Shown one piece after another: positions 1,840-39,691 of a DNA stretch of 64,000 nucleotides. The notes under the pieces are model-generated. The model made no database searches and had not been told where the DNA came from. It saw only the letters and a program-made list of their open reading frames with translations. Position 1 is the first letter of the stretch. Each line of letters begins with the position of its first letter. The translations under genes and the position numbers were made by a program. Origin of the DNA: Klebsiella phage KP182; the sequence record OM337876.1. One strand, written 5' to 3'.

Positions 1840-3120
1840 ATGGCTAAAATCAACGAACTTCTGCGCGAGTCAACTACAACGAGTAGCAACTTAATTGGTC
1901 GCCCTAATCTCGTTGCATTAACGCGCGCAACTACTAAATTAATCTATACCGATCTTGTTGCTACACAGCGTACTAAACAGCCTGTAGCAGCACTGTATGG
2001 TATTAAATATCTTAACCCTAATGGTGACCTGACGTTTAATACAGGTGCAACTTATGCAGGTCAAATCGGGGCGCCAGAACGTGAGTCAATTGAAGAACTC
2101 ACTATGGCAAATAAAGACTCATTCAATAAAGACGATATGTTCAAATATCAGAATGTGGTCTTTAAAGTACTTAAAGATAGCCCGTTTACCGATACAGCAG
2201 AAACCGATGAATTTGGACTTGTATCTGAAGCGGTAGCAGCTAATAATATTCGTATGTTGTCAGATGCTGCAGTCACTGAAAAATTTGAAGGACCTGATTC
2301 AGACCCAATCACCGAAGCCAGTTTTAAAATTGATAAATGGCAGACCCAGGTTAAATCACGTAAGCTTAAAACAGATTTAACGGTAGAATTAGCTCAAGAT
2401 TTAGAAGCTAACGGGTTCGATGCTCCAGAGCTTATTGATGATTTACTTGCTACTGAAATGGCAGAAGACATTAATAAAGACATCTTACAATCATTGATTA
2501 CGGTTTCTTCTCGGTTTAAAGTAGCTGGTGTATCCGATAAGGGTGTATTAGATTTAACTAAACAAGATTCTGCTCCGGAACAAGGTCGTACTCTGTACCG
2601 TTTCATTTGTGAAATGAATTCAGCAGTTCAACGTAATACTTCTTATTCTGGTACTTATGCAGTAGCATCTACTCGTTGTGCTGCGGTGCTGGCAGCTTCC
2701 GGTTGGTTAACACAGAAGAATGATGGCACTATTCCGGACAACGCGTACGGTATGCTGAATAACGGTTTACCTCTTTATTGTGATACTAACAGCCCAGTTG
2801 ATTACGTTATTGTTGGTGTTAAGGCAGAATTTGGTGGGAAGGAAACTGTAGGTTCTTTATTTTATGCGCCATATACCGAAGGCTTGGATTTAGACGACCC
2901 TGAGCATGTTGGTGCATTTAAAGTTATTGTTGACCCAGCTAGCTTGCAGCCTTCTGTTGCTTTACTGGTACGATATGCGCTGTCAGTTAACCCATATACT
3001 GTAGGATTGGACGAGGACGAAGCTCGTGTGATTAATGCTGCGGATATGGATAAGATGGCAGGAAGAAGTAAGATGTCTGTACTGCTCGGTGTTAAGTTAC
3101 CTAAGCTTATTGCGGACTAA
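1840..3120 (+). CDS. 24: Head vertex protein gp24
   Basis: 426 aa gp23 paralogue; late promoter TATAAATA at 1804-1811; terminator at 3126-3148. Confidence 0.95.
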   Translation: MAKINELLRESTTTSSNLIGRPNLVALTRATTKLIYTDLVATQRTKQPVAALYGIKYLNPNGDLTFNTGATYAGQIGAPERESIEELTMANKDSFNKDDMFKYQNVVFKVLKDSPFTDTAETDEFGLVSEAVAANNIRMLSDAAVTEKFEGPDSDPITEASFKIDKWQTQVKSRKLKTDLTVELAQDLEANGFDAPELIDDLLATEMAEDINKDILQSLITVSSRFKVAGVSDKGVLDLTKQDSAPEQGRTLYRFICEMNSAVQRNTSYSGTYAVASTRCAAVLAASGWLTQKNDGTIPDNAYGMLNNGLPLYCDTNSPVDYVIVGVKAEFGGKETVGSLFYAPYTEGLDLDDPEHVGAFKVIVDPASLQPSVALLVRYALSVNPYTVGLDEDEARVINAADMDKMAGRSKMSVLLGVKLPKLIAD

Positions 3121-3125
3121 TTTAC

Positions 3126-3148
3126 GGGGAGCTTCGGCTCCCCTTTTG
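3126..3148 (+). terminator. Rho-independent terminator GGGGAGC-UUCG-GCUCCCC + U4 after gene 24
   Basis: Hairpin followed by a T-run. Confidence 0.65.
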
Positions 3149-3697
3149 CTATAAACTAAATATGTCAAACCTCGAGGAGTATTCCTCCTCGAGGGATTTA
3201 AACACGTTCTTATCATAGAGGTTGACGCATTCTATTCCATGTCTACGGGCTATATCAACAGCTACTCTCGTCCCTCCAGATACACTCCCACATCTTTTTT
3301 CAGGCGCCCAATATAATACCTTATCTACAGGCTCAGTGCATTCTAGGCCCAATACCTGCATAGAATTCCGTGCGAATAATGTCTGCACTATCTTCGAGCA
3401 TTCATCCCAGTACGACGTAACTTCTCTCGCCTTAATGATGCTTTTGATTTTGGCTTCGTTTGATAATTCAGACCATACAACAACACCTGTATCAGGAAAG
3501 TGGCCACAAAAGCCAGAGTAAGGAATAATCCTACAAGAATTTGACCTATCGTATTTTGCCAACCACGCTTCATCTGAACCCGGAGCTCCACCTGAATATG
3601 AAAAATGCCCCTCTTCCGAGAGGCGTTGACCTATTATAGTCATTAGACTCAGAACTCTGCGTGGCGCTTCTCTTGAACCAATCAGCGCCAGCCTCAT
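3149..3697 (-). CDS. SLOG-superfamily (DprA/Smf- or YpsA-like) Rossmann-fold protein; not a T4 core gene at this position
   Basis: 182 aa with 'ALIGSREAP' and 'SGGAPGSDEAWL' motifs resembling the DprA/LOG nucleotide-binding fold; the T4 24.2/24.3 slot normally holds much smaller ORFs. Confidence 0.45.
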   Translation of the reverse strand: MRLALIGSREAPRRVLSLMTIIGQRLSEEGHFSYSGGAPGSDEAWLAKYDRSNSCRIIPYSGFCGHFPDTGVVVWSELSNEAKIKSIIKAREVTSYWDECSKIVQTLFARNSMQVLGLECTEPVDKVLYWAPEKRCGSVSGGTRVAVDIARRHGIECVNLYDKNVFKSLEEEYSSRFDIFSL

Positions 3698-4704
3698 TAT
3701 TCTAAAACCTCATGCCATTTACTACGAATAGTGTTTTGAATTAAAATAGTCAGTTCTTTCTTAACTGCAGAAGGATTATCAGCGAATAACATATCGTGAC
3801 CTTCACGAGCTGCTTCGTTAATGATATCTTTCATAGTCAGTCCCATAACACGACCGAAATCTTTAGCAGTTACAGTACCAATATGAGACAGAACGTTACT
3901 TACACGGTTCCAGGTTACATACTCGGAAAAGATTTCCAGAACACGCTTATCAGTATCAGTGAGTTCAACCTTAGCTTTAATAGGCTTATCAGATTTAGCT
4001 TTCTCGCTGAACTTAGAATTCTTGCACTTAATAGCTACACGGGTACCGTTATTAAAGAATTTAGGATTAACCGGTTTAAGAACATAGCCTTCAGCTACAC
4101 CGGTTTCAGAAGAAGCCTGTGGACCGAACACATGTTTATTTGCATGTTCAAGGTCAGTCGTGTCAACAAGTTCATTGTAGTAATTGACAATAGATTTAAA
4201 GTCATTTACATACTGAGATAATTCAGCGAATGAACCACGACCAAGCAGTGGAGCTAATTTAAGACCAAGACCAGTAGCAAACGATTCTACTACATAATCG
4301 TCCCAATAAACTTTTTCATTACCGGAGTCCGACAGGATATCAAACACGTAGAAATCTTTCACACCATAATCTACGCCTTTCTGAATACCGCCGCCAGCAA
4401 ATTCGCCAAAGATTTGAACAGATACTAAATCCATGGCATTTAGCATGTTCTGCATCTTAACGAAAGAATCCTTGTACTTCTTCATGATAATCTCATGACC
4501 AAAGAAGCTTTCACCTTCTAAAATAGGACCAGTACGCTTAGCCGGAACAATTTCGGTAGGGGTAATAATCACACTGAAGTTAGTGCCATGAATCTTCTCA
4601 CGAGCTACCCACTCAACAGTATGCATATCAAAACCAGCACCACGAATTTTCTCGATGAACTTATTGTTGTAATGGTTCTCGAGACTAGAATATTTTGCAA
4701 ACAT
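3697..4704 (-). CDS. rnlB: RNA ligase 2 (Rnl2)
   Basis: 335 aa with KIHGTN adenylation motif; colinear with T4 Rnl2 ('MF.KYSSLENHYN.KFIEK...WVAREKIHGTNFS'). Confidence 0.93.
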   Translation of the reverse strand: MFAKYSSLENHYNNKFIEKIRGAGFDMHTVEWVAREKIHGTNFSVIITPTEIVPAKRTGPILEGESFFGHEIIMKKYKDSFVKMQNMLNAMDLVSVQIFGEFAGGGIQKGVDYGVKDFYVFDILSDSGNEKVYWDDYVVESFATGLGLKLAPLLGRGSFAELSQYVNDFKSIVNYYNELVDTTDLEHANKHVFGPQASSETGVAEGYVLKPVNPKFFNNGTRVAIKCKNSKFSEKAKSDKPIKAKVELTDTDKRVLEIFSEYVTWNRVSNVLSHIGTVTAKDFGRVMGLTMKDIINEAAREGHDMLFADNPSAVKKELTILIQNTIRSKWHEVLE

Positions 4705-4713
4705 TATATTTCC

Positions 4714-4971
4714 TTAGAATGTGATTTTCATAAAGTCAGTATCACCATTACGCTGGGCACTGGTATAATTTGTAACAAATCCTTCATCATGCAAATAATT
4801 AAGAACACTTGTAATATGTTTCTTAACTAGACTGCTAGGATACATAATTAGCTCACGCTTACCCGCTAAAGCGGTTTTCTCAATTTGAGTTAATACTTCT
4901 TCTTTTGCTGCACTCAATTCTTCTGTAGCAACATTAATAGCTGTATTAGCCATTCTATCGGCAAGGTTCAT
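4714..4971 (-). CDS. Hypothetical protein (85 aa)
   Basis: ORF co-oriented and tightly packed with rnlB. Confidence 0.55.
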   Translation of the reverse strand: MNLADRMANTAINVATEELSAAKEEVLTQIEKTALAGKRELIMYPSSLVKKHITSVLNYLHDEGFVTNYTSAQRNGDTDFMKITF

Positions 4972-5084
4972 AATTTTTCTCTCAATAAATAATATAAAAC
5001 CAGGAGTCTATCTATCCTGGGCAAGGGTAATGGTATTAGAGAATTTCCCCTGAGCCCATTATACCACGTCCAAACTTAAAGCAA

Positions 5085-5414
5085 TTAATATCCGCTCGGC
5101 ACGAAGCGGTACACCAGATGGCCGTGTTTATTTCGCATGATTTCAAATTGACTTTTGCTTCCAACTTCCAATACTAATGGAATATCTTTATCCATCAGCA
5201 TCCAATCAATTTTTCCATACCGTTCATTAATCAAATCCGTTATTTTACGTGCACCACTTTTATAGTAGTAAGAACTCTGAACAGCCATCATTTTACTAAC
5301 AAATTTAGATGCAAACAACCAGACATTTACCCCATTAGCAGCTGGCGTAAATTTCTTAGAAAGCATTTCTTCAAATCGTTCTACTACAATTGGGTCTGCT
5401 TTAGGCATTTTCAT
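5085..5414 (-). CDS. Hypothetical protein (109 aa)
   Basis: ORF whose start overlaps the stop of the upstream HTH gene (TTATGA). Confidence 0.55.
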   Translation of the reverse strand: MKMPKADPIVVERFEEMLSKKFTPAANGVNVWLFASKFVSKMMAVQSSYYYKSGARKITDLINERYGKIDWMLMDKDIPLVLEVGSKSQFEIMRNKHGHLVYRFVPSGY

Positions 5415-5638
5415 AATAACCTCATATGTTTAACAAGTTTCTTATGACGAGATTTTATACCAACGTTTGTTAAGCGTTTCCGATATACGACTTTTTCTTT
5501 TTGCTTAAACCGTTCGTGTGCTTTCTCAACTGAGACCCACAATTTAGCAGCTTCCGCTGGAGTGATATCTAATGCTCTCGCAATTTCTTGAAAATCTTTA
5601 CCGCTTTCATGCATTAAGTGAGCTTGTAGTGCTTTCAT
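5414..5638 (-). CDS. Small helix-turn-helix DNA-binding protein (74 aa)
   Basis: RBS GAGG precedes ATG at 5638; 'DFQEIARALDITPAEAAKLW' is a classical HTH. The longer tracked ORF (to 5806) runs into the hoc 3' end and hoc terminator, so the internal start is preferred. Confidence 0.5.
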
Positions 5639-5687
5639 AATAACCTCATCTATGTGACGAGGACATAATAAACCAATCCGTGAATAG

Positions 5688-5712
5688 CAAAAAAGGGAGC
5701 CCGAAGGCTCCC
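5688..5712 (-). terminator. Rho-independent terminator GGGAGCC-UUCG-GGCUCCC + U6 after hoc
   Basis: Hairpin followed by a U-run on the minus strand. Confidence 0.65.
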
Positions 5713-30363: not shown

Positions 30364-31515
30364 CTATTCTTCAGAAATTTCAATTTCCTTTTCGTACTCT
30401 TTTGGAACATATCCTGCCCAGTACTTCAAGAACACCCTTTCGAGGTCTTTAAGCAGTTTATCTACATCTACAGTTCCTTCGTACATGTTCATGATAACAC
30501 CAAAAAGATGGCGCTGATTAACCGTTGCTTTCTGAGCAGCAATAGCGTAGTCTTTACGAGCACGACCTCTGTATTCATCATAGAATGACTGACACAGCTC
30601 AAGTGACTTTCCGAGGTAATCTAGATAAGCTTGCTCAAACGCAGAAATTTTATTAATTGCGTATTCGTCTCCAGCAAAAAGAGAACGCAAGTCATCGGAA
30701 TTTGCAGATACGACAGACGCAAACAGTCTTTCATTTGACGTTATTGAGTCTTTAGTGTGATGAAGAGCAGAATACCATTCGGTTTTAACCTTAAATCTCT
30801 GCCCAGTGTTTAGAACTGCAATGTACCCTTCTACGCCTTCAAGTTCACGAACACCTTCAACCCAAGTAGTGGGGTCAGAAATTCCGTAAGCATTAATTAA
30901 ATAAGGACGAATCTTAGCATTAGCGTACAAATCATCATATTTAATATACTCGCCAGTTGCGTTATTACGGACGTTTAACACAAACAGCTGTGGCTCCTGA
31001 TACGCTAAAACAACGCGATTATTAGGTGAAACAAATTCCATGTTTACCGTATAACCATCTAGCGCTAGCTCAAGAATAACCTGATGAAGCGAAGAATATT
31101 CTTCACTGTTAAGCAAAGCTGAAGCTTGTCTTGCCTGGTCACTGTAGAGCGATGTTTTTGACTTAAGGTATAGATACCCATCATCGACATAAGATGATAC
31201 TAGAGAGCCATCAGCCTTATCCATAATGTATTCTACATCGCTAATATCAATTCCCATCGTTAATGGGTTTTCATTCAAATTAAAGAACTTTTCCATCGGC
31301 CGCGAAGCAATTCGAATTGGGGCATCGCCATCCATCTCAAACATGATACCGCGGCATTCGAGAGCATCGGGTTTTAACCACTCGCTGTAGCTTGCATAGT
31401 GATATGAAAACACTCTGAACTTACCATCCATAGGACCGGTAAAATCTTTATAAAAGAATTTTGCAACTTCTGAGCTTTCACATAGATTCATTAAATTTTT
31501 ATATAGCTCTAACAT
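30364..31515 (-). CDS. rnlA: RNA ligase 1 (gp63)
   Basis: 383 aa, colinear with T4 Rnl1 ('PDALECRGIMFEMDG...RIASRPMEKFFNLNENP'). Confidence 0.93.
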   Translation of the reverse strand: MLELYKNLMNLCESSEVAKFFYKDFTGPMDGKFRVFSYHYASYSEWLKPDALECRGIMFEMDGDAPIRIASRPMEKFFNLNENPLTMGIDISDVEYIMDKADGSLVSSYVDDGYLYLKSKTSLYSDQARQASALLNSEEYSSLHQVILELALDGYTVNMEFVSPNNRVVLAYQEPQLFVLNVRNNATGEYIKYDDLYANAKIRPYLINAYGISDPTTWVEGVRELEGVEGYIAVLNTGQRFKVKTEWYSALHHTKDSITSNERLFASVVSANSDDLRSLFAGDEYAINKISAFEQAYLDYLGKSLELCQSFYDEYRGRARKDYAIAAQKATVNQRHLFGVIMNMYEGTVDVDKLLKDLERVFLKYWAGYVPKEYEKEIEISEE

Positions 31516-31925
31516 TTCTTTACCTTATGTTGTGTGTTCCATGGAGGATTGAACTTCTTAATCAGAAGTGGTTCTTCCAAGTCCATAGTGGATATTGACA
31601 TCTCGCCAAGTTCATTATTAATCAAAAGATTAAAACACTGACGAGCATAGAACTCTACTTTTTTGCCAGCCATTAGTGCTTCAAAAATCTTGGCAGATTT
31701 AGCTGAATCAGAGGTTTGGTCTTTCCGATTAATAGCAGTTCTATAATAATTTATACGTTTACGAAGATTTTTAGTCTTACCAATGTAAACTAGTTCATCA
31801 TCAACTGCGATGGCATAAACTACATTCAACTTGTTTGCTATCAGAATTGGTTTGATGGTAAAATCTGGTTCTAACTCAAGTTGAACATATTTTATAAAAG
31901 AAAACTCGTTAGCAATATCATTCAT
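31509..31925 (-). CDS. denA: Endonuclease II (GIY-YIG family)
   Basis: 138 aa; 'VYAIA..DELVYIGKTKNLRKRINYYR' is nearly identical to T4 DenA. Confidence 0.9.
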   Translation of the reverse strand: MNDIANEFSFIKYVQLELEPDFTIKPILIANKLNVVYAIAVDDELVYIGKTKNLRKRINYYRTAINRKDQTSDSAKSAKIFEALMAGKKVEFYARQCFNLLINNELGEMSISTMDLEEPLLIKKFNPPWNTQHKVKKC

Positions 31926-31952: not shown

Positions 31953-33095
31953 TTATAAGTACTTTTTAAATCCAATTAGAACATCATCAGTGACATCATT
32001 GTCAATCTGAGCTACCAGATAAGAACTTATCTCAACTTCCTGAGGAGCAGATTGGACTGCGTCAGAGTTAAGATATTCACGAATCCAAGGAATAGGATGT
32101 CGAGTTGGTGCATCAGTAATCGGACAAGGAAGACCACAACTACGCATACGAGATACAGTCAGATAGTCAATGAAGTCATGAAGAATTTTAACGTTCAGTC
32201 CCGGAAGACCACCGTTGCGGAAAAGATGGATAGCCCAATCTTTTTCTTGGCGGTTAACTTCCATGAAGATTTTAATTGCTTCTTGTTCACACTCTTTAGC
32301 AATCTCAACCCATTCTTCGCCATCAGTGCCAGTTTGAAGTTGACGCAGAATGTACTGTGTGCCCTTCAAATGAAGTTGTTCATCACGAGCAATGAACTTC
32401 ATGATTTTAGCATTACCTTCCATGATTTCCATATTTTTATGGAAGTTGAAGGTACATGCAAAACTAACATAGAAACGAATAGCTTCTAATGCGTTAATAA
32501 CATGTAAGCAAAGATAAAGAGATTTCATTAAATCACGTTTAGCTTCTTTAATTTCGATATTATCTTGATTAAAGCAGCGATTTTTGGCATTTTCCCATGC
32601 GCGAGTCTTCGCTATAACATCATCATAGTAAACACCAATTGACTCAGCGCGTTTCATGATTGCTTCGTCAAGAACGATTTCATCAAAGATTTTAGCTGGG
32701 TCTACATATAGGTTACGCATGATATGCGTGTACGAACGGCTGTGAATAGTTTCACTGAACGTCCAAGTCTGGTTCCAAGTATCTAGGCTTGGGTCAGAAA
32801 TAAGTGCAGATAAAACTGCTGCTGGAGCTCGTCCTTGAATTGAATCAAGAAGAGATTGGTACTTCAAGTTATCAGTGAAGATATTACGCTGATGTTCTGG
32901 GAGTTTTTCAAACTGACCACGGTCCATCATAACGTTAACTTCTTCAGGACGCCAGAAGAAACTCAACTGCTTCTCAATGAGTTCCTCGAATACTTTATGA
33001 CGCTGAATATCATAACGCGCAATTCCTAGACCAGAACCAAAGAACATCGGTTCGGTCATGATATCTACTTGCTTGGTATTAAAAACTGTACTCAT
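31953..33095 (-). CDS. nrdB: Ribonucleotide reductase small subunit (intronless)
   Basis: 380 aa continuous ORF; no intron or HEG interruption, unlike T4. Confidence 0.95.
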   Translation of the reverse strand: MSTVFNTKQVDIMTEPMFFGSGLGIARYDIQRHKVFEELIEKQLSFFWRPEEVNVMMDRGQFEKLPEHQRNIFTDNLKYQSLLDSIQGRAPAAVLSALISDPSLDTWNQTWTFSETIHSRSYTHIMRNLYVDPAKIFDEIVLDEAIMKRAESIGVYYDDVIAKTRAWENAKNRCFNQDNIEIKEAKRDLMKSLYLCLHVINALEAIRFYVSFACTFNFHKNMEIMEGNAKIMKFIARDEQLHLKGTQYILRQLQTGTDGEEWVEIAKECEQEAIKIFMEVNRQEKDWAIHLFRNGGLPGLNVKILHDFIDYLTVSRMRSCGLPCPITDAPTRHPIPWIREYLNSDAVQSAPQEVEISSYLVAQIDNDVTDDVLIGFKKYL

Positions 33096-33151: not shown

Positions 33152-35398
33152 TTAAAGCTTACAGGCCGCGCAGTCAGCAGAATCTTGAATCATATCATCG
33201 TTACCAGAACCATCACGGGTGTTATGATAGTAAAGAGTCTTACCGCCAAAGTACCAGAAATAAAGCAAGTCGTCCATCATTACCGACATTTCAACTTTGC
33301 CTTTAGGGAAATTCGCCGGGTCGTAATAAGTATTAGCAGAGATGCTTTGGTCAACAAATTTCTGCATAATCAGAACTTGGTTCAGATAAGGCTTATTACC
33401 CTGTTTCGCGAGCTGCCAGGCATAATCATAAAGGGAAGCATTGTGTTCAACGTTTGGAACGACTTGGTTGAAACTTCCTTCTTTTGATTCTTTAACTGAC
33501 ACTGGTCCACGTGGTGGTTCAATACCGTTGGTAGAGTTTGATACCTGGCTTGACGATTCGCATGGCATAAGCGCAGATAGCGTTGAATTTCGGATACCGT
33601 ATCGCTTGAGGTCTTCTCGCAGGAGTTCCCAATCACAGACATAGTTTGGGGCTGCGAGTTGGTCAATCCTTTCATTGTACCAATCAATAGGCAGTTCACC
33701 ACGTCCGTATCGTGTTTCTTTGTAAAGCGTGCACGGACCTTTTTCGCTAGCAAGTTTAACCGAGGCTTTGATGAGTGCATATTGAATACGTTCCATCATT
33801 TCGTGAGTAATATCATTAGCATCTGCGTATGAAGCAAAGTTGCTTGCTAACCAAGCTGCATAGTTAGTAATACCAACACCTAGTGCTCGACGGTCTTTAG
33901 CTTTTAATGCTTTGTTTACAGGATAGTCTTGGTAATCCAAAAGGTTATCCAAAGCCCTTACCATTACTTCTGCGATTTCGTTAACTTCTTCTTGGTCTTG
34001 CCAGTTAAAGTTGTCGAGTACGAATGCTGCGAGTGTACATAGCGCGATTTCGCCATCTTCTTGGCCAACATCCGAAGTTGGTAACGCAATTTCGAGGCAG
34101 AGGTTTGATTGCTTAACCGTAGCCACATCACGAATAAAAGGACCATATTCACCAACGTTATCTACCATGTACGGGTAAATTCGAGCAGTACCAGCACGTT
34201 CAGTAAGGAACAACTCAAACAGTTCACGAGCTTTAATACGTTTCTTTCTTATATCTGGGTTCTTTTCCAGTTCTTCATATAATGTACGGAACGCTTGAGC
34301 ATCACGGAAATATTCGGTGTACAAAGTCCCCAAGCATACATCGGGACTAAACAGAGTGATGTAATCATTCTTAATCAAACGTTCAATCATCAGGTTATTA
34401 ATCTGAACGCCATAATCTAAATGACGAATACGGTTTTCATCTACACCTTTGTTGTTCTTAAGTACGAGGAGGTTTTCAACTTCCAAGTGCCAGATTGGAT
34501 AGTACAGTGTCGCCGCCCCGCCGCGGACTCCACCTTGGGAGCAGGACTTAACTGCGGTTTGGAAGTGTTTCCAGAAAGGAATAACACCAGTATGCTTGAC
34601 TTCACCGAATCCAATTTTTGATCCTTCTGCACGAATCATCCCCGCATTAATACCAATACCAGCACGCTTACTAATGTATTTCGTAATTGATGCAGCGGCT
34701 TCGTTAATTGAATTAAGACTATCACCACCTTCAATAACCACACATGAACTGAACTGGCGTGTCGGAGTACGAACACCAGACATAATTGGCGTTGGCAATG
34801 AAATCTTTTTAGTAGAAACTGCATCATAGAAACGAATAACGTTTGCTAAACGATTTTCGCCATCATCTTGGTGCAAGCACATGCCGATCAGCATAAAAGC
34901 AAATTGTGGAGTTTCATACAATTCACCAGTGTGACGGTCTTTTACGAGATACTTCTCAATAAGCTGCATTGTTCCAGCATAAGTCATAGTGAAATCACGC
35001 TCATGCTTAATATAAGAATCAAGCAAAGTAATTTCTTCCGCAGACCACTTACTTAGAATTTCTTTATCGTACTTGTTTGCGTTAACGCATCGGGAAATGT
35101 GGTCAATAAATGCAGGCGGTTCAAACTGTCCATAAACACGTTTACGGATTTCAAACATGGCTGCATTGGATGCTACATATTGATAATCTGGCTCATCAAT
35201 AGAAATGCTATTCGCTGCTACCTTAACGATAGTCTTCTGGATATCTGCAGTGCTCATGCCATCACGCAGATGGGATTTAATAATTTCATACAACTCGTAT
35301 GGGTCTACTTTAGTTCCTTCGCATGCCCATTCGAGGACTTTAATGATTTTCTGCATGTCAAATTCTTGACTAACACCTGAGCTCTTAATTACTTGCAT
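33152..35398 (-). CDS. nrdA: Ribonucleotide reductase large subunit
   Basis: 748 aa class Ia NrdA. Confidence 0.96.
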   Translation of the reverse strand: MQVIKSSGVSQEFDMQKIIKVLEWACEGTKVDPYELYEIIKSHLRDGMSTADIQKTIVKVAANSISIDEPDYQYVASNAAMFEIRKRVYGQFEPPAFIDHISRCVNANKYDKEILSKWSAEEITLLDSYIKHERDFTMTYAGTMQLIEKYLVKDRHTGELYETPQFAFMLIGMCLHQDDGENRLANVIRFYDAVSTKKISLPTPIMSGVRTPTRQFSSCVVIEGGDSLNSINEAAASITKYISKRAGIGINAGMIRAEGSKIGFGEVKHTGVIPFWKHFQTAVKSCSQGGVRGGAATLYYPIWHLEVENLLVLKNNKGVDENRIRHLDYGVQINNLMIERLIKNDYITLFSPDVCLGTLYTEYFRDAQAFRTLYEELEKNPDIRKKRIKARELFELFLTERAGTARIYPYMVDNVGEYGPFIRDVATVKQSNLCLEIALPTSDVGQEDGEIALCTLAAFVLDNFNWQDQEEVNEIAEVMVRALDNLLDYQDYPVNKALKAKDRRALGVGITNYAAWLASNFASYADANDITHEMMERIQYALIKASVKLASEKGPCTLYKETRYGRGELPIDWYNERIDQLAAPNYVCDWELLREDLKRYGIRNSTLSALMPCESSSQVSNSTNGIEPPRGPVSVKESKEGSFNQVVPNVEHNASLYDYAWQLAKQGNKPYLNQVLIMQKFVDQSISANTYYDPANFPKGKVEMSVMMDDLLYFWYFGGKTLYYHNTRDGSGNDDMIQDSADCAACKL

Positions 35399-35423
35399 AA
35401 GTCCTCTGTAGTAAGTTACCCCA

Positions 35424-35431
35424 TATAAATA
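35424..35431 (+). promoter_or_regulatory. T4 late promoter TATAAATA for the HEG
   Basis: Exact match 20 nt upstream of RBS AGGAGA and ATG 35452; I-TevI in T4 is also late-expressed. Confidence 0.6.
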
Positions 35432-35451
35432 TAATTATATAGGAGAATATA

Positions 35452-36183
35452 ATGGAATCTGGAATATATGTTATTATAAACACTAAAACTAATAAGCACT
35501 ATATAGGAAGTGCAATTAATTTTGAAGAACGATGGAAACGACACTTTAAAGATTTAGATAATGGAAATCACCATTCAATAAAGTTGCAACGCTCTTATAA
35601 TAAGCATGGGAAAGATGCTTTCGTATGTAAAATCATAGAAGAACTTCCATACGAAAAGTCTATCATCATTGAACGCGAAAACTATTGGATGCGTGAATAT
35701 GACTCAAAGGAAAATGGATATAACATAGCAGACGCATCGTTTGGAGATACCTTATCTAATCATCCAAGAAAGCAAGAAATCCTCAATAAGATTTCAAACG
35801 CGATAAAAGATAATAATTCAAAATTATCGTCAGAAGAACTCAAGCGCAAGCATGGTAGGCCAAGCAGTATTAAAGGCAAAACTATAGAAGAGCAATACGG
35901 CTTAGAACGTGCAATAGAAATAAGCAAAAAGTTCCAAGAAAGAAATACCACGCTTAATATGAAAGGCAATAATAATCCATATTATGGGAAGACACATACC
36001 GATGAAGCCAGAAAACGAATTTCTGACTCACAAAGAGGTAAAAAGAAACCCCATCTAAGAGTAAGTATAGATGGGGTAGAATATCCAACAATTGCTGAAG
36101 CGGTTAGGCTTACTGGAATAAGCAGAAAGCTTATAACTAAAAGGTGCTCACTTGATTGCTGGGAAACATATTTATACTGCTAA
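35452..36183 (+). CDS. GIY-YIG homing endonuclease, full-length I-TevI homologue (free-standing, opposite strand to neighbours)
   Basis: 243 aa; 'SGIY.I.NT.NK.Y.GSA..FE.RWKRHFKDL..G.H.SIKLQRS.NKHG', 'IIERENFW/YW', 'NGYNIADA.FGDT' match I-TevI; C-terminal NUMOD3-like repeats and HTH ('AEAVRLTGISRKL'). Confidence 0.88.
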   Translation: MESGIYVIINTKTNKHYIGSAINFEERWKRHFKDLDNGNHHSIKLQRSYNKHGKDAFVCKIIEELPYEKSIIIERENYWMREYDSKENGYNIADASFGDTLSNHPRKQEILNKISNAIKDNNSKLSSEELKRKHGRPSSIKGKTIEEQYGLERAIEISKKFQERNTTLNMKGNNNPYYGKTHTDEARKRISDSQRGKKKPHLRVSIDGVEYPTIAEAVRLTGISRKLITKRCSLDCWETYLYC

Positions 36184-37055
36184 ACTGCCATTTTCCCCTT
36201 AATTGTTGGGTGAGATTTATATCCTTTAAGAACAAAGTCAGATGGTTTCATCATTCCTGTAACCCAAGCTAATTGTTCTTCTGTTGTTAATTCATGAAAT
36301 TCTTTATCTTTTACTGGAGGCCAATAATTAATTTCAAGTTCACAAAGTTCTTTCGGTTCTCGACGCAAGATTTCTTTACACTGCTCAATATGGTTCAGAT
36401 AAATGTGAGTGTTACCACCAGTGAATACCAAATGCCCAGGTTTAAGATTTGTCATTTTAGCAATGATATGAACTAGTGCTGCATATGACGCAATATTGAA
36501 GGGGAGGCCAAGGAATACATCTACAGAACGCTGATACCATTGGAGGTCAAGATGCCCCTGACGAACGTTAAATTGATACAGCAAATGACATGGTGGCAAT
36601 GCCATCTTATCCAAATCAACCGGGTTCCATGCAGTCACAATCTGACGACGGTCATACGGAAGTTGCTTGATACGGTCAATGATCAATTTCAGTTGGTCAA
36701 CACCCATGAAATCTCGCCATTGCTTACCATACACAGGACCTAACTCACCGCCAGAATATCCCATGTCTTTAGCTTGATTTTCATAATTGTCGTCCCATAC
36801 AGTTTTGCCTTCGAGCAATGAACCATGCTGAATAAGACGCAATTCATGGACATTAGTAGACCCTTGCAAGAACCAAAGCATCTCTGCAATACACGCTTTC
36901 CACGCAAGACGCTTGGTAGTTACTGCCGGAAATCCCTCTTGTAAATCAAACCGATGTTGAGTACCAAACTTTGCAATAGTACCGGTACCAGTACGGTCAT
37001 CCGTCTCATAGCCGTTTTCAAAAATGTCTTTAATTAATTCTTGGTATTCACGCAT
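36180..37055 (-). CDS. td: Thymidylate synthase (intronless)
   Basis: Colinear with T4 Td from 'MREYQELIKDIFENGYETDDRTGTGT'; single continuous ORF, so the tracked 311-aa N-terminal extension is likely not translated. Confidence 0.93.
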   Translation of the reverse strand: MREYQELIKDIFENGYETDDRTGTGTIAKFGTQHRFDLQEGFPAVTTKRLAWKACIAEMLWFLQGSTNVHELRLIQHGSLLEGKTVWDDNYENQAKDMGYSGGELGPVYGKQWRDFMGVDQLKLIIDRIKQLPYDRRQIVTAWNPVDLDKMALPPCHLLYQFNVRQGHLDLQWYQRSVDVFLGLPFNIASYAALVHIIAKMTNLKPGHLVFTGGNTHIYLNHIEQCKEILRREPKELCELEINYWPPVKDKEFHELTTEEQLAWVTGMMKPSDFVLKGYKSHPTIKGKMAV

Positions 37056-37365
37056 TAAATTTTTCCTGAAGAGGTGTAAAGAAAAGCTGATTCCCACGCT
37101 TTTCAAATCGCCCAATAATAGACACTACATCATCTTTGACCATCACATTGCCATGTGACATTCCGATGAACATCTTCTTATAATCACGTTCAATTTCAAT
37201 AGGTATATTTCCATTTCGGTTATATACTGTAGTTGAACCGTTATAAGTGCTAAGACCATTATAACTGAAAACTAGAAGATGAATACCATGCTTAAATGGA
37301 AATCTTTTCCACTTCTTTTGGACTTTGTCTTCTGATAGCTGAGTGATATCATAGTTTGCGCTCAT
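37048..37365 (-). CDS. Hypothetical protein (105 aa) inserted between frd and td
   Basis: ORF; in T4, frd and td overlap directly. Confidence 0.5.
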   Translation of the reverse strand: MSANYDITQLSEDKVQKKWKRFPFKHGIHLLVFSYNGLSTYNGSTTVYNRNGNIPIEIERDYKKMFIGMSHGNVMVKDDVVSIIGRFEKRGNQLFFTPLQEKFNA

Positions 37366-37948
37366 AGACCACCTCTGAAATGTTAGTCACTTCATCAATA
37401 TGATACCAATGATTTTCAATAACTTTAAACCCAGAGTTTTCATAGGTTGGAGCCACTACAAACGCAATAGGCAGAGTGACATCAGAATTCACTCTATGAC
37501 TTTTTCTGATGATTGTTTGGATAACCTTATCTGCGTATGGATATGCCTTCTGGATGATTCCGGCACCGCCTATCACTGAATATTTTTCATTACGATTAAA
37601 GATAATAGTCAGGTTATACGATGTATGAGCGGCAAGGTGTTCACCACCTAAAAATTCCATAAATTCTTCTTCACTAGCATACGCGTCAGCAAAAAATCCG
37701 TTTTTAGCTGTTGCCAGGTCTCGATTCATATCCTGGATAACGATTGTCTTACGCCCAGGAAGAGGTTCAGGAAAACTCATAAAAGTCTTTGCTCCGCAAA
37801 TCAAGATAGTATCTCGAGTACGATTAGCAAAGTTTTTCATGTCCTGGGAAATATGTTTCCATGGAAGACCATCGCCTAAGCCGAAAGCATTTTCATTTTT
37901 GCCGTCTACAGTTTTTGTAGGAGCAAAGGCATAAACTATTTGAATCAT
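37349..37948 (-). CDS. frd: Dihydrofolate reductase
   Basis: 199 aa; 'PTKTVDG.NE.AFGLGDGLPW' matches T4 Frd. Confidence 0.92.
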   Translation of the reverse strand: MIQIVYAFAPTKTVDGKNENAFGLGDGLPWKHISQDMKNFANRTRDTILICGAKTFMSFPEPLPGRKTIVIQDMNRDLATAKNGFFADAYASEEEFMEFLGGEHLAAHTSYNLTIIFNRNEKYSVIGGAGIIQKAYPYADKVIQTIIRKSHRVNSDVTLPIAFVVAPTYENSGFKVIENHWYHIDEVTNISEVVYERKL

Positions 37949-38773: not shown

Positions 38774-39691
38774 TTAGAGGTCGTTCAAAATATCATTCAG
38801 ATCGTCATCGCCAACACTGTCACCAGCATCGCCCATGATATCGTCTGCGGAACGAGAAGAGGTCGGTTTGGATTCAAAATCAGACAGGTCTTTGTCAAAG
38901 GAATCCAGGTCATCGCCAATTTTATCGGCTTGAGCTGCTGCTTTGGCCGCGGCACCACCAAGAGCTGCTGTACCCATAATCTGTTTAAATTTGGCTTCGT
39001 TAACTTCAAACGATTTAAACTGAGATGGAGCCACAATTTCGCTGAGGTCAGCCATATTTTCGGTCAGGAATTTCTGAGTTTCTTCATCATTGATGTTTGC
39101 AATCTCGGACTGACCAAGGAATTTACATTCATCATAGTTCTGGAAACCACCGACTTTCTTAACTTTCATGACGAAGTTTGCACCTTCATACACGCAAGTT
39201 ACATCAACCGGAGTTTCACCCATATCAACATCGACTTCAACCATCGCGTTGATTTTGTCCATAATTTTCTGACCGAAACGGAATTTGAATACTTTGCCTT
39301 CGTTTTCTGGGTTAGCCGGGTCTTTAATAACCAGGATGTTAGACCAGAAAGAAGTTTTACGTTTCAGAAGCTTATATTCAGCTGGGTTGCTGTTATAAGA
39401 ATCATTTTTACTCAGATGAGCACAAACCGGGCAAGAATCAAAATCACCGTGAGTAGAAGTACAATTTTCGATGTACCATTTACCGCCATGTTTGAAACCG
39501 TGATTGATCAGTTTTACAAACGGTAGAGAGTTTTCATCTTTACCAGGCAGGAAGCGAATTACTGCTTGACCATTACCAGCATTATCGGTCTTCAGTTTCC
39601 ATTCGTTTTTATCTTCATTAGAGAAAGAAGAACCACCTTTCAGACCAGCCAGTTGTTGTTGAAGTTGAGCAGGATTTTTACGCTTGAACAT
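38774..39691 (-). CDS. 32: ssDNA-binding protein gp32
   Basis: 305 aa with zinc-binding CxxC region; T4 gp32-like. Confidence 0.96.

Follow-up and report, generated by a model that had tools for sequence, protein, structure and literature searches.

T4-like phages are rich in free-standing endonuclease genes, including homing endonuclease genes (HEGs) of the GIY-YIG family, and the element considered here is of this ordinary type. I-TevI and the td intron in which it resides are the textbook model of intron homing. In Klebsiella phage KP182, a homologue of I-TevI stands between nrdA and td on the opposite strand, beside a td gene that has no intron. This arrangement raises the question of which sequence such an endonuclease would use for homing. 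We addressed it in a stretch of 64,000 nucleotides from sequence record OM337876.1 (hereafter the window) and in the equivalent loci of related phages. An earlier reading of the window (the original prediction) had taken the neighboring td gene as the presumptive target. Our comparisons instead make it likely that the HEG belongs to a self-contained mobile cassette that homes via nrdA.1 or the junction of nrdA.1 and nrdA, and not via the td intron site.

The HEG is an intact open reading frame (ORF) of 243 amino acids (aa) at 35452..36183 on the plus strand, beginning with ATG and ending with TAA. It forms most of a cassette of approximately 777 bp (35408-36184) that replaces 493 bp of other phages. 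The parts of the cassette and its two junctions are as follows.

35396..35407, minus strand: start codon and Shine-Dalgarno (SD) sequence of nrdA, GAGGACTTATG on the coding strand; these form the left flank, and the cassette breakpoint falls directly after them.
35408..35451, plus strand: cassette leader, with a late-promoter motif and an SD sequence.
35452..35745, plus strand: GIY-YIG catalytic domain (residues 1-98).
35746..35961, plus strand: interdomain linker (residues 99-170).
35962..36180, plus strand: DNA-binding domain, with a NUMOD3/minor-groove helix at residues 171-191 and an I-TevI-type helix-turn-helix (HTH) at about residues 201-243.
36180..36186, no strand assigned: right junction, where the cassette provides the last codon and the stop of td.

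The 5-kb surroundings of the HEG are 99.5% identical to those in Klebsiella phage vB_KpnM_KpV477 (Jiaodavirus). Approximately 136 Jiaodavirus-like records have the same flanks, and most of these records align with only 84% of the 5-kb query, as they lack the HEG. The cassette was present in 26 phage records, 17 of them from Klebsiella Jiaodavirus (~12% of Jiaodavirus records) and nine from Escherichia or Shigella Tequatrovirus. Six Jiaodaviruses lacking the HEG had nrdA.1 and an ORF of 68 aa (orf68) in the position of the cassette, both on the minus strand. Jiaodavirus NrdA.1 is 72% identical to T4 NrdA.1 and matches Pfam DUF4326. The left breakpoint is sharp and falls right after the nrdA start and SD sequence, at TTGCATAAGTCCTC(T)/GTAGTAAGTTACCCC, where the slash marks the break. 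The right breakpoint lies within the last codon and stop of td, which ends in KMAV plus stop in carriers and in KMAI plus stop in non-carriers, and homology between carriers and non-carriers resumes at GCCAT on the td side. At this junction the two genes overlap tail to tail in their stop codons, with the HEG TAA at 36181-36183 and the td TAG at 36180-36182 on the minus strand.

Sequence identities within and between genera point to horizontal transfer of the cassette. Within Jiaodavirus, the cassette is 85-93% identical and more diverged than its flanks, which are 91-97% identical. Between the window and Tequatrovirus this relation is reversed, with 90% nucleotide identity in the cassette and only 71-72% in nrdA and 73% in td. 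The reversal implies that cassette and flanks have different histories, and hence that the cassette was transferred horizontally. The copies in Tequatrovirus lie inside the range of allele diversity found in Jiaodavirus. The gene had originally been likened to free-standing HEGs of the seg or mob type, and this view gains support from its presence/absence polymorphism, sharp breakpoints, movement across genera, and intact ORF.

Two carriers, KP179 and PKO111, have an extra, unrelated ORF between nrdA and the HEG, encoding 76 aa in the former (~2617-2844, minus strand) and 81 aa in the latter (~2617-2859, minus strand; both in coordinates of the excerpts that were compared). The HEG and nrdA are approximately 250 bp apart in these phages. 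The two small proteins are 49% identical to each other and match no Pfam or PHROG family. At the DNA level, the 76-aa ORF was found only in KP179 and, in a diverged version, in PKO111; it occurred in no genome lacking the HEG. These ORFs may be cargo or a remnant of a donor genome.

The cassette occupies the same site in other clades. Its left breakpoint falls at the identical nucleotide beside the nrdA SD sequence in Tequatrovirus N2, TB004, Ozark, ECO07P5, and LH2, and the break in N2, Ozark, and LH2, when located relative to T4, is the same as in the window. The right breakpoint in Tequatrovirus is 6-7 nt past the ATG of nrdA.1, such that nrdA.1 alone is replaced and NrdA.2 is retained with an altered C-terminus. 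A homologue with 49-51% identity lies between nrdA and td, on the opposite strand and with TATAAATA upstream, in Acinetobacter phages of the genera Lazarusvirus (Kimel, Octan, Meroveus, and Apostate) and Hadassahvirus (AbTZA1). Lazarusvirus relatives lacking the HEG, such as Lazarus, have NrdA.1 (DUF4326) and a 70-aa ORF in place of the 49% identical homologue, and the breakpoint between Kimel and Lazarus is the nrdA start codon itself. None of the HEG-bearing loci that we examined retained nrdA.1.

Having delimited the cassette, we turned to the protein that it encodes. Pfam placed a GIY-YIG domain (PF01541) in the product with an E-value of 6.5e-15 (55.6 bits against a cut-off of 22.6) and NUMOD3 in two stretches with an E-value of 1.6e-9 (38 bits against a cut-off of 20.4), the best stretch being residues 171-191. 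The I-TevI_DNA-bd family (PF20987) matched residues 201-238 with an E-value of 4.6e-4, at 20.5 bits and thus below its cut-off of 27. Solved structures of I-TevI extended these assignments: the catalytic domain (PDB 1mk0) matched residues 1-98 (E = 1.7e-39) and the DNA-binding domain (PDB 1i3j) matched residues 154-240 (E = 1.3e-8). Matches to these solved domains settle the question of the predicted fold. All motifs on which the original prediction drew were present in the translation. Residues Y6, Y17, R27, H31, H40, E76, and N91 were invariant in an alignment of the HEG product with T4 I-TevI and five other homologues, and the catalytic Arg and Glu, whose loss would have marked the enzyme as inactive, are therefore both in place as R27 and E76.

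Identity to I-TevI is 46% overall and falls unevenly along the protein. The catalytic domain is the best conserved part, at 68%, followed by the proximal linker (41%), the NUMOD3 and HTH regions (33% each), and the region of the I-TevI zinc finger (16%). The proximal linker keeps the I-TevI-like motif FGDTLSxHPxKxEI, and further along the linker the zinc finger is absent, with a NUMOD3-like segment free of Cys in its place. All free-standing copies have no Cys in the zinc-finger region, whereas the two intron-encoded proteins examined, T4 I-TevI and the copy of Proteus phage phiP4-3, have four each. Given the overall identity and the four missing zinc-finger Cys, the description of the gene as a full-length I-TevI homologue goes too far. 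When the T4 record was searched with the HEG protein, only I-TevI matched at E ≤ 1e-5, and no seg gene did. Judged by its sequence, the product belongs to the I-TevI lineage as a distinct free-standing paralogue and is not I-TevI itself.

In I-TevI, the distance at which the enzyme cleaves is fixed by the zinc finger, which also keeps it from cutting the I-TevI operator (PMC2988022). Given that the HEG product has no zinc finger, its cleavage distance would have to be measured differently. All 12 alleles examined were intact. Their ratio of nonsynonymous to synonymous divergence (dN/dS) was 0.05-0.11 over the full length of the gene, and none of the three protein regions tested separately exceeded 0.13. 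The protein is under purifying selection, which maintains it. A scan of IMG/VR for close relatives returned only three distant matches with 31-38% identity.

We next considered whether td could be the target, as the original prediction had assumed. I-TevI cleaves intronless td at a CNNNG motif 23-25 bp upstream of the intron insertion site, and the window contains an equivalent of this site.

36180-37055, minus strand: td, a continuous ORF of 291 codons without an intron.
36477..36551, minus strand: td segment corresponding to the I-TevI homing site, which shares 56 of 75 positions with the T4 exon junction and keeps CNNNG as CAGCG.

Rfam detected no group I intron in the 30-40 kb interval of the window, even at E ≤ 1. 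With its ORF continuous and no match at this threshold, td hides no cryptic intron that the original prediction might have missed. Nor is the HEG encoded in a td group I intron, as it lies outside td on the other strand. The window and KP185 differ at one base of the homing-site equivalent, and variation in this site is not tied to the HEG. Among 14 Jiaodavirus genomes, eight with the HEG and six without, there were no fixed differences between carriers and non-carriers in either td (876 nt) or nrdA (2247 nt). Substitutions conferring immunity, by which a homing target is usually located, therefore yielded no lead.

Tequatrovirus provided all three td intron states alongside the HEG, whose presence was not associated with any one of them. 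Ozark and ECO07P5 combine the HEG with an intronless td; that of ECO07P5 shares 66 of 75 positions with the T4 junction, CAACG among them. Escherichia phage N2 (ON645936) has a 254-nt td group I intron without an ORF at the exact T4 insertion site (Rfam Intron_gpI, 72.6 bits), with ends identical or nearly identical to those of the T4 intron. In the N2 excerpt the intron entry is at 4850-5065 on the minus strand and the HEG copy, 91% identical, is at 3501-4232 on the plus strand, approximately 600 bp from the intron. This layout is formally a collaborative or trans-homing arrangement. Introns without an ORF are likewise found in the td of phages that lack the cassette. Shigella phage TB004 and Escherichia phage LH2 have a full td intron containing an I-TevI-like ORF. 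In excerpt coordinates, the HEG and the intron ORF are at 3501-4232 (plus strand) and 4949-5692 (minus strand) in TB004, and at 3046-3777 (plus strand) and 4494-5231 (minus strand) in LH2. Each of these genomes thus has two I-TevI-family genes within 1.5 kb, which suggests that the paralogues have different targets.

These results suggest that td is not the target of the HEG. The td site is the same in carriers and non-carriers, so cleavage there could not distinguish donor from recipient and would hit the carrier's own genome. The original proposal of td as target fares poorly for this reason and because the HEG is found with all three td intron states. Its companion, a collaborative homing configuration in the window, is not supported either: Rfam finds no intron in td, and the HEG is not associated with intron state. 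The replaced segment is the sole consistent difference between carriers and non-carriers, and nrdA.1 is always lost with it. From this we infer that the homing site most likely lies within nrdA.1 or across the nrdA.1/nrdA junction. The target could lie in one of the blocks conserved among T4, Jiaodavirus, Lazarusvirus, and phiP4-3, such as the stretch CATGGTGAT..., which codes for CHGD.

Searches of the replaced segment and of the HEG upstream region for known I-TevI sites yielded no candidates above chance. The T4 I-TevI binding-site sequence matched the replaced segment at 15 of 27 positions at best, which is the chance level. A comparison of the HEG upstream region with the HEG-less allele for an I-TevI-style operator gave at best 16 of 22 positions, no better than shuffled sequence.

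The flanking genes also vary in ways of their own. Both td and nrdA are fine-scale mosaics across Jiaodavirus. In this genus td comes in two widespread alleles, one of 876 nt and the other of 861 nt, whose C-terminal segments of approximately 35 aa are unrelated; neither allele shows linkage to the HEG. The alleles differ at coding positions ~627-735 (window ~36321-36429). We considered the 861-nt allele of PKO111, Nispero, and Merci as a co-conversion tract and rejected it on the grounds that the allele is also common in genomes lacking the HEG. At the other flank, nrdA varies little at its 5' end (window 35199-35398, minus strand): among 14 Jiaodaviruses there are only 3 and 7 variable sites per 100 nt in its first 100 and first 200 nt, respectively, as compared with 12-17 in the next 300 nt.

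We then asked how the HEG might be expressed. A T4-type late-promoter motif, TATAAATA, is located exactly at 35424-35431 on the plus strand, and an SD sequence, AGGAG, is at 35442-35446, five nt ahead of the ATG. Both the promoter motif and the ribosome-binding site of the original prediction can therefore be read directly in the sequence. The octamer has 12 copies in the window against an expectation of 5.9 ± 2.5, which makes any single copy weak evidence. It is kept upstream of all 14 free-standing homologues examined, 19-27 nt before the ATG, and likewise precedes the intron-encoded copy in phiP4-3. This conservation is consistent with late expression from a promoter of the gene's own. Since the surrounding operon is transcribed in the opposite direction, sense transcripts of the gene would come from such a promoter alone. 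The leader RNA contained no hairpin sequestering the ribosome-binding site like that of I-TevI (structure z-score of -0.21). No terminators were found downstream of the HEG, where counts were the same as in shuffled sequence.

A second TATAAATA is present at 36169-36176 on the minus strand, within the last codons of the HEG and pointing towards nrdA. All 12 alleles from Jiaodavirus and Tequatrovirus retain it despite synonymous divergence (dS) of up to 0.67, and the Acinetobacter homologues lack it. This copy could be a late promoter for nrdA or for an antisense transcript, or it could be a coincidence.

Taking these observations together, we propose a mechanism modelled on the intronless homing of the T4 Seg and Mob endonucleases (PMC2988022). 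The HEG would be transcribed only late, from its own promoter, antisense to the early and middle operon of nucleotide metabolism. During mixed infection, the enzyme would cut near this locus in a related phage whose allele lacks the HEG. Recombinational repair would then copy the cassette from the carrier, replacing nrdA.1 and, in Jiaodavirus, the neighboring 68-aa ORF as well. The carrier would be immune through loss of the target, and not through point changes in td or nrdA. Several points weigh against this proposal. Our placement of the target derives solely from what carrier genomes lack, and the late-promoter assignment from a motif of 8 nt. The absence of HEG-linked polymorphism in the flanks could reflect homologous recombination shuffling an old insertion, with no active homing. 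The extra ORF in KP179 and PKO111 means that the nrdA-side junction is not universal. Furthermore, the enterobacterial and Acinetobacter homologues share only 26-33% identity in their HTH regions, and nrdA.1 as a common target across clades is accordingly not guaranteed.

Other explanations distribute the same evidence differently. The model of the original prediction, wherein the enzyme cuts the td intron-insertion site, homes by this means, and may mobilize ORF-less td introns in trans, can point to the proximity of the HEG to the homing-site equivalent (~320 bp), to the degree to which that site and its CNNNG are preserved, and to a DNA-binding domain homologous to that of I-TevI. N2 also pairs its HEG with an ORF-less td intron, resembling the scenarios described for mobE and I-TevIII (PMC2988022). 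Nevertheless, we regard this model as improbable: the td site of Jiaodavirus does not differ with HEG presence and a carrier would be cut, the HEG coexists with intronless td in Ozark and ECO07P5, phages without the cassette have ORF-less td introns too, and the HTH region shares only 33% identity with an I-TevI whose distance-determining zinc finger the HEG product is missing. A related and similarly speculative idea is that the free-standing paralogues beside td in four genera (Jiaodavirus, Tequatrovirus, Lazarusvirus, and Hadassahvirus) are a 'pre-intron' stage of the I-TevI lineage or a partner of the td intron, cutting at or near the td insertion site of some phages and able to mobilize ORF-less introns in trans. 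We hold this to be unlikely.

An alternative that moves the target to the other flank places it at a conserved site near the 5' end of nrdA, or elsewhere in the vicinity, that carriers and non-carriers have in common; carriers would be protected by timing, by protection of DNA ends, or by the enzyme occupying the site as a repressor. We know of no phage homing system that operates without a sequence difference between donor and recipient, and the separation of the HEG from nrdA in KP179 and PKO111 is hard to accommodate. The abutment of the HEG 5' end on the nrdA start in four genera would fit such a target, as would the unusual invariance of the first 100-200 nt of nrdA, although little variation near a gene start can arise for ordinary reasons. 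There is also a precedent for protection by occupancy, in that I-TevI doubles as an autorepressor that binds without cleaving (PMC2988022). On balance we give cleavage in nrdA little credence. Finally, the HEG may be an old, inactive insertion kept for exclusion of competitors or for regulation, its patchy distribution resulting from recombination and loss. The Jiaodavirus alleles are deeply diverged (dS up to 0.67) and yet under purifying selection, and co-conversion tracts are not visible in the flanks, both as would be expected of such an element. This account is difficult to reconcile with intact catalytic residues and with a cassette that is 90% identical across genera between flanks of 71-73%, which indicates relatively recent spread to the same site, and we therefore doubt it as well. 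Homing of a mobile cassette via nrdA.1 or its junction with nrdA remains the reading that we favor.

The wider neighborhood contains the following genes, all of which lie on the strand opposite to the HEG.

Within 30.3-41.9 kb, minus strand: rnlA-like (RNA-ligase-like) gene.
31509-31925, minus strand: denA-like ORF of 138 aa, between nrdB and the RNA-ligase-like gene.
31953-33095, minus strand: nrdB, a continuous ORF of 380 codons.
33152-35398, minus strand: nrdA, the left neighbor of the HEG.
Between td and frd, minus strand: ORF of 105 aa.
37349-37948, minus strand: frd.
38774-39691, minus strand: gene 32.

With the exception of the HEG, all gene-sized ORFs of the ~30.3-41.9 kb interval are on the minus strand, opposite to the HEG. 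The ORF map thus confirms the placement of the HEG between nrdA and an intronless td, antisense to every neighbor. The single continuous ORF of nrdB agrees with the claim that this gene, too, is intronless, and the gap between nrdA and nrdB is only 56 bp. The 138-aa denA-like ORF contains a GIY-YIG-like motif, VYIGKTKNLRKRINYY. This ORF, for which the KpV477 annotation reads putative endonuclease II (denA), is a phage nuclease with a housekeeping role and no homing element. Additional free-standing endonuclease genes occur just past nrdA in other phages, including a 'homing endonuclease' at 1-269 in Mexia and a 'Hef-like homing endonuclease' at 1-1164 in N2. Taken as a whole, the nrd-td region is a hotspot for such genes.

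Existing annotations identify the HEG in general terms. The KpV477 protein kpv477_238, a 'putative homing endonuclease', is 100% identical to the HEG product and has the same position and orientation. Other orthologues are labeled 'endonuclease I-Tevi' (PKO111_160 and KPN6_63) or 'putative I-TevI-like homing endonuclease' (Kimel orf226). These annotations are automatic or brief, and some are wrong ('intron-associated endonuclease 1'). A search of open-access literature returned no analysis of the HEG locus between nrdA and td; what it did return was a genome announcement, a review, and papers of a general nature. Three features of the locus therefore appear to be undescribed there: a free-standing sister of I-TevI without a zinc finger that recurs at the nrdA.1 position in four genera, movement of the HEG between phage genera of Klebsiella and Escherichia, and its coexistence with three td intron states.

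The locus offers a natural comparison set, in which a sister lineage lacking the zinc finger lies a few hundred bp from td alongside three td intron states. Such a set makes it possible to study target switching in GIY-YIG endonucleases through swaps of DNA-binding modules, as well as the ways in which introns and endonuclease genes join or stay apart. If the paralogues were indeed a pre-intron stage or partner of the td intron, the origin of the mobile td intron would be directly testable with natural isolates of all three intron states. For annotation, the names 'intron-associated endonuclease 1' and 'I-TevI' are unsuitable for this HEG in the genomes of Klebsiella and Escherichia phages. 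For phage engineering, the interval between nrdA and td tolerates replacement, with nrdA.1 and orf68 being dispensable in Jiaodaviruses that are therapeutic candidates.

Placed in the context of known systems, the HEG most resembles I-TevI of the T4 td intron (PDB 1mk0 and 1ln0 for the catalytic domain, 1i3j and 1t2t for the DNA-binding domain). The two share a catalytic domain at 68% identity with all catalytic residues, a conserved proximal linker, a NUMOD3/minor-groove helix followed by a C-terminal HTH, a similar length (245 aa in I-TevI, 243 aa in the HEG product), a late-promoter-type motif just upstream, and the td neighborhood. Unlike I-TevI, the HEG is not encoded in an intron, lies on the strand opposite to td, and has none of the four zinc-finger Cys. 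Its DNA-binding region is 16-33% identical in a protein of 46% overall identity, and the comparative data argue against the td intron-insertion site as its discriminating target.

In genomic behavior the HEG resembles the free-standing GIY-YIG and HNH endonucleases of T-even phages, SegA-G and MobE, for which intronless and trans homing have been described (PMC2988022, PMC2790892). Like these, it is a free-standing ORF among conserved genes of nucleotide metabolism, is present or absent in close relatives, replaces small non-essential ORFs, has a late-type promoter motif of its own, and has spread horizontally. It differs from the Seg proteins in that its sequence groups with I-TevI and that it is antisense to the surrounding operon. 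Collaborative homing pairs, wherein a free-standing endonuclease targets an intron-insertion site (PMC2988022), are resembled by the HEG copy of N2 near its ORF-less td intron. The likeness does not extend to the window, where td has no intron, or to Tequatrovirus as a whole, where the HEG and intron state are not associated.

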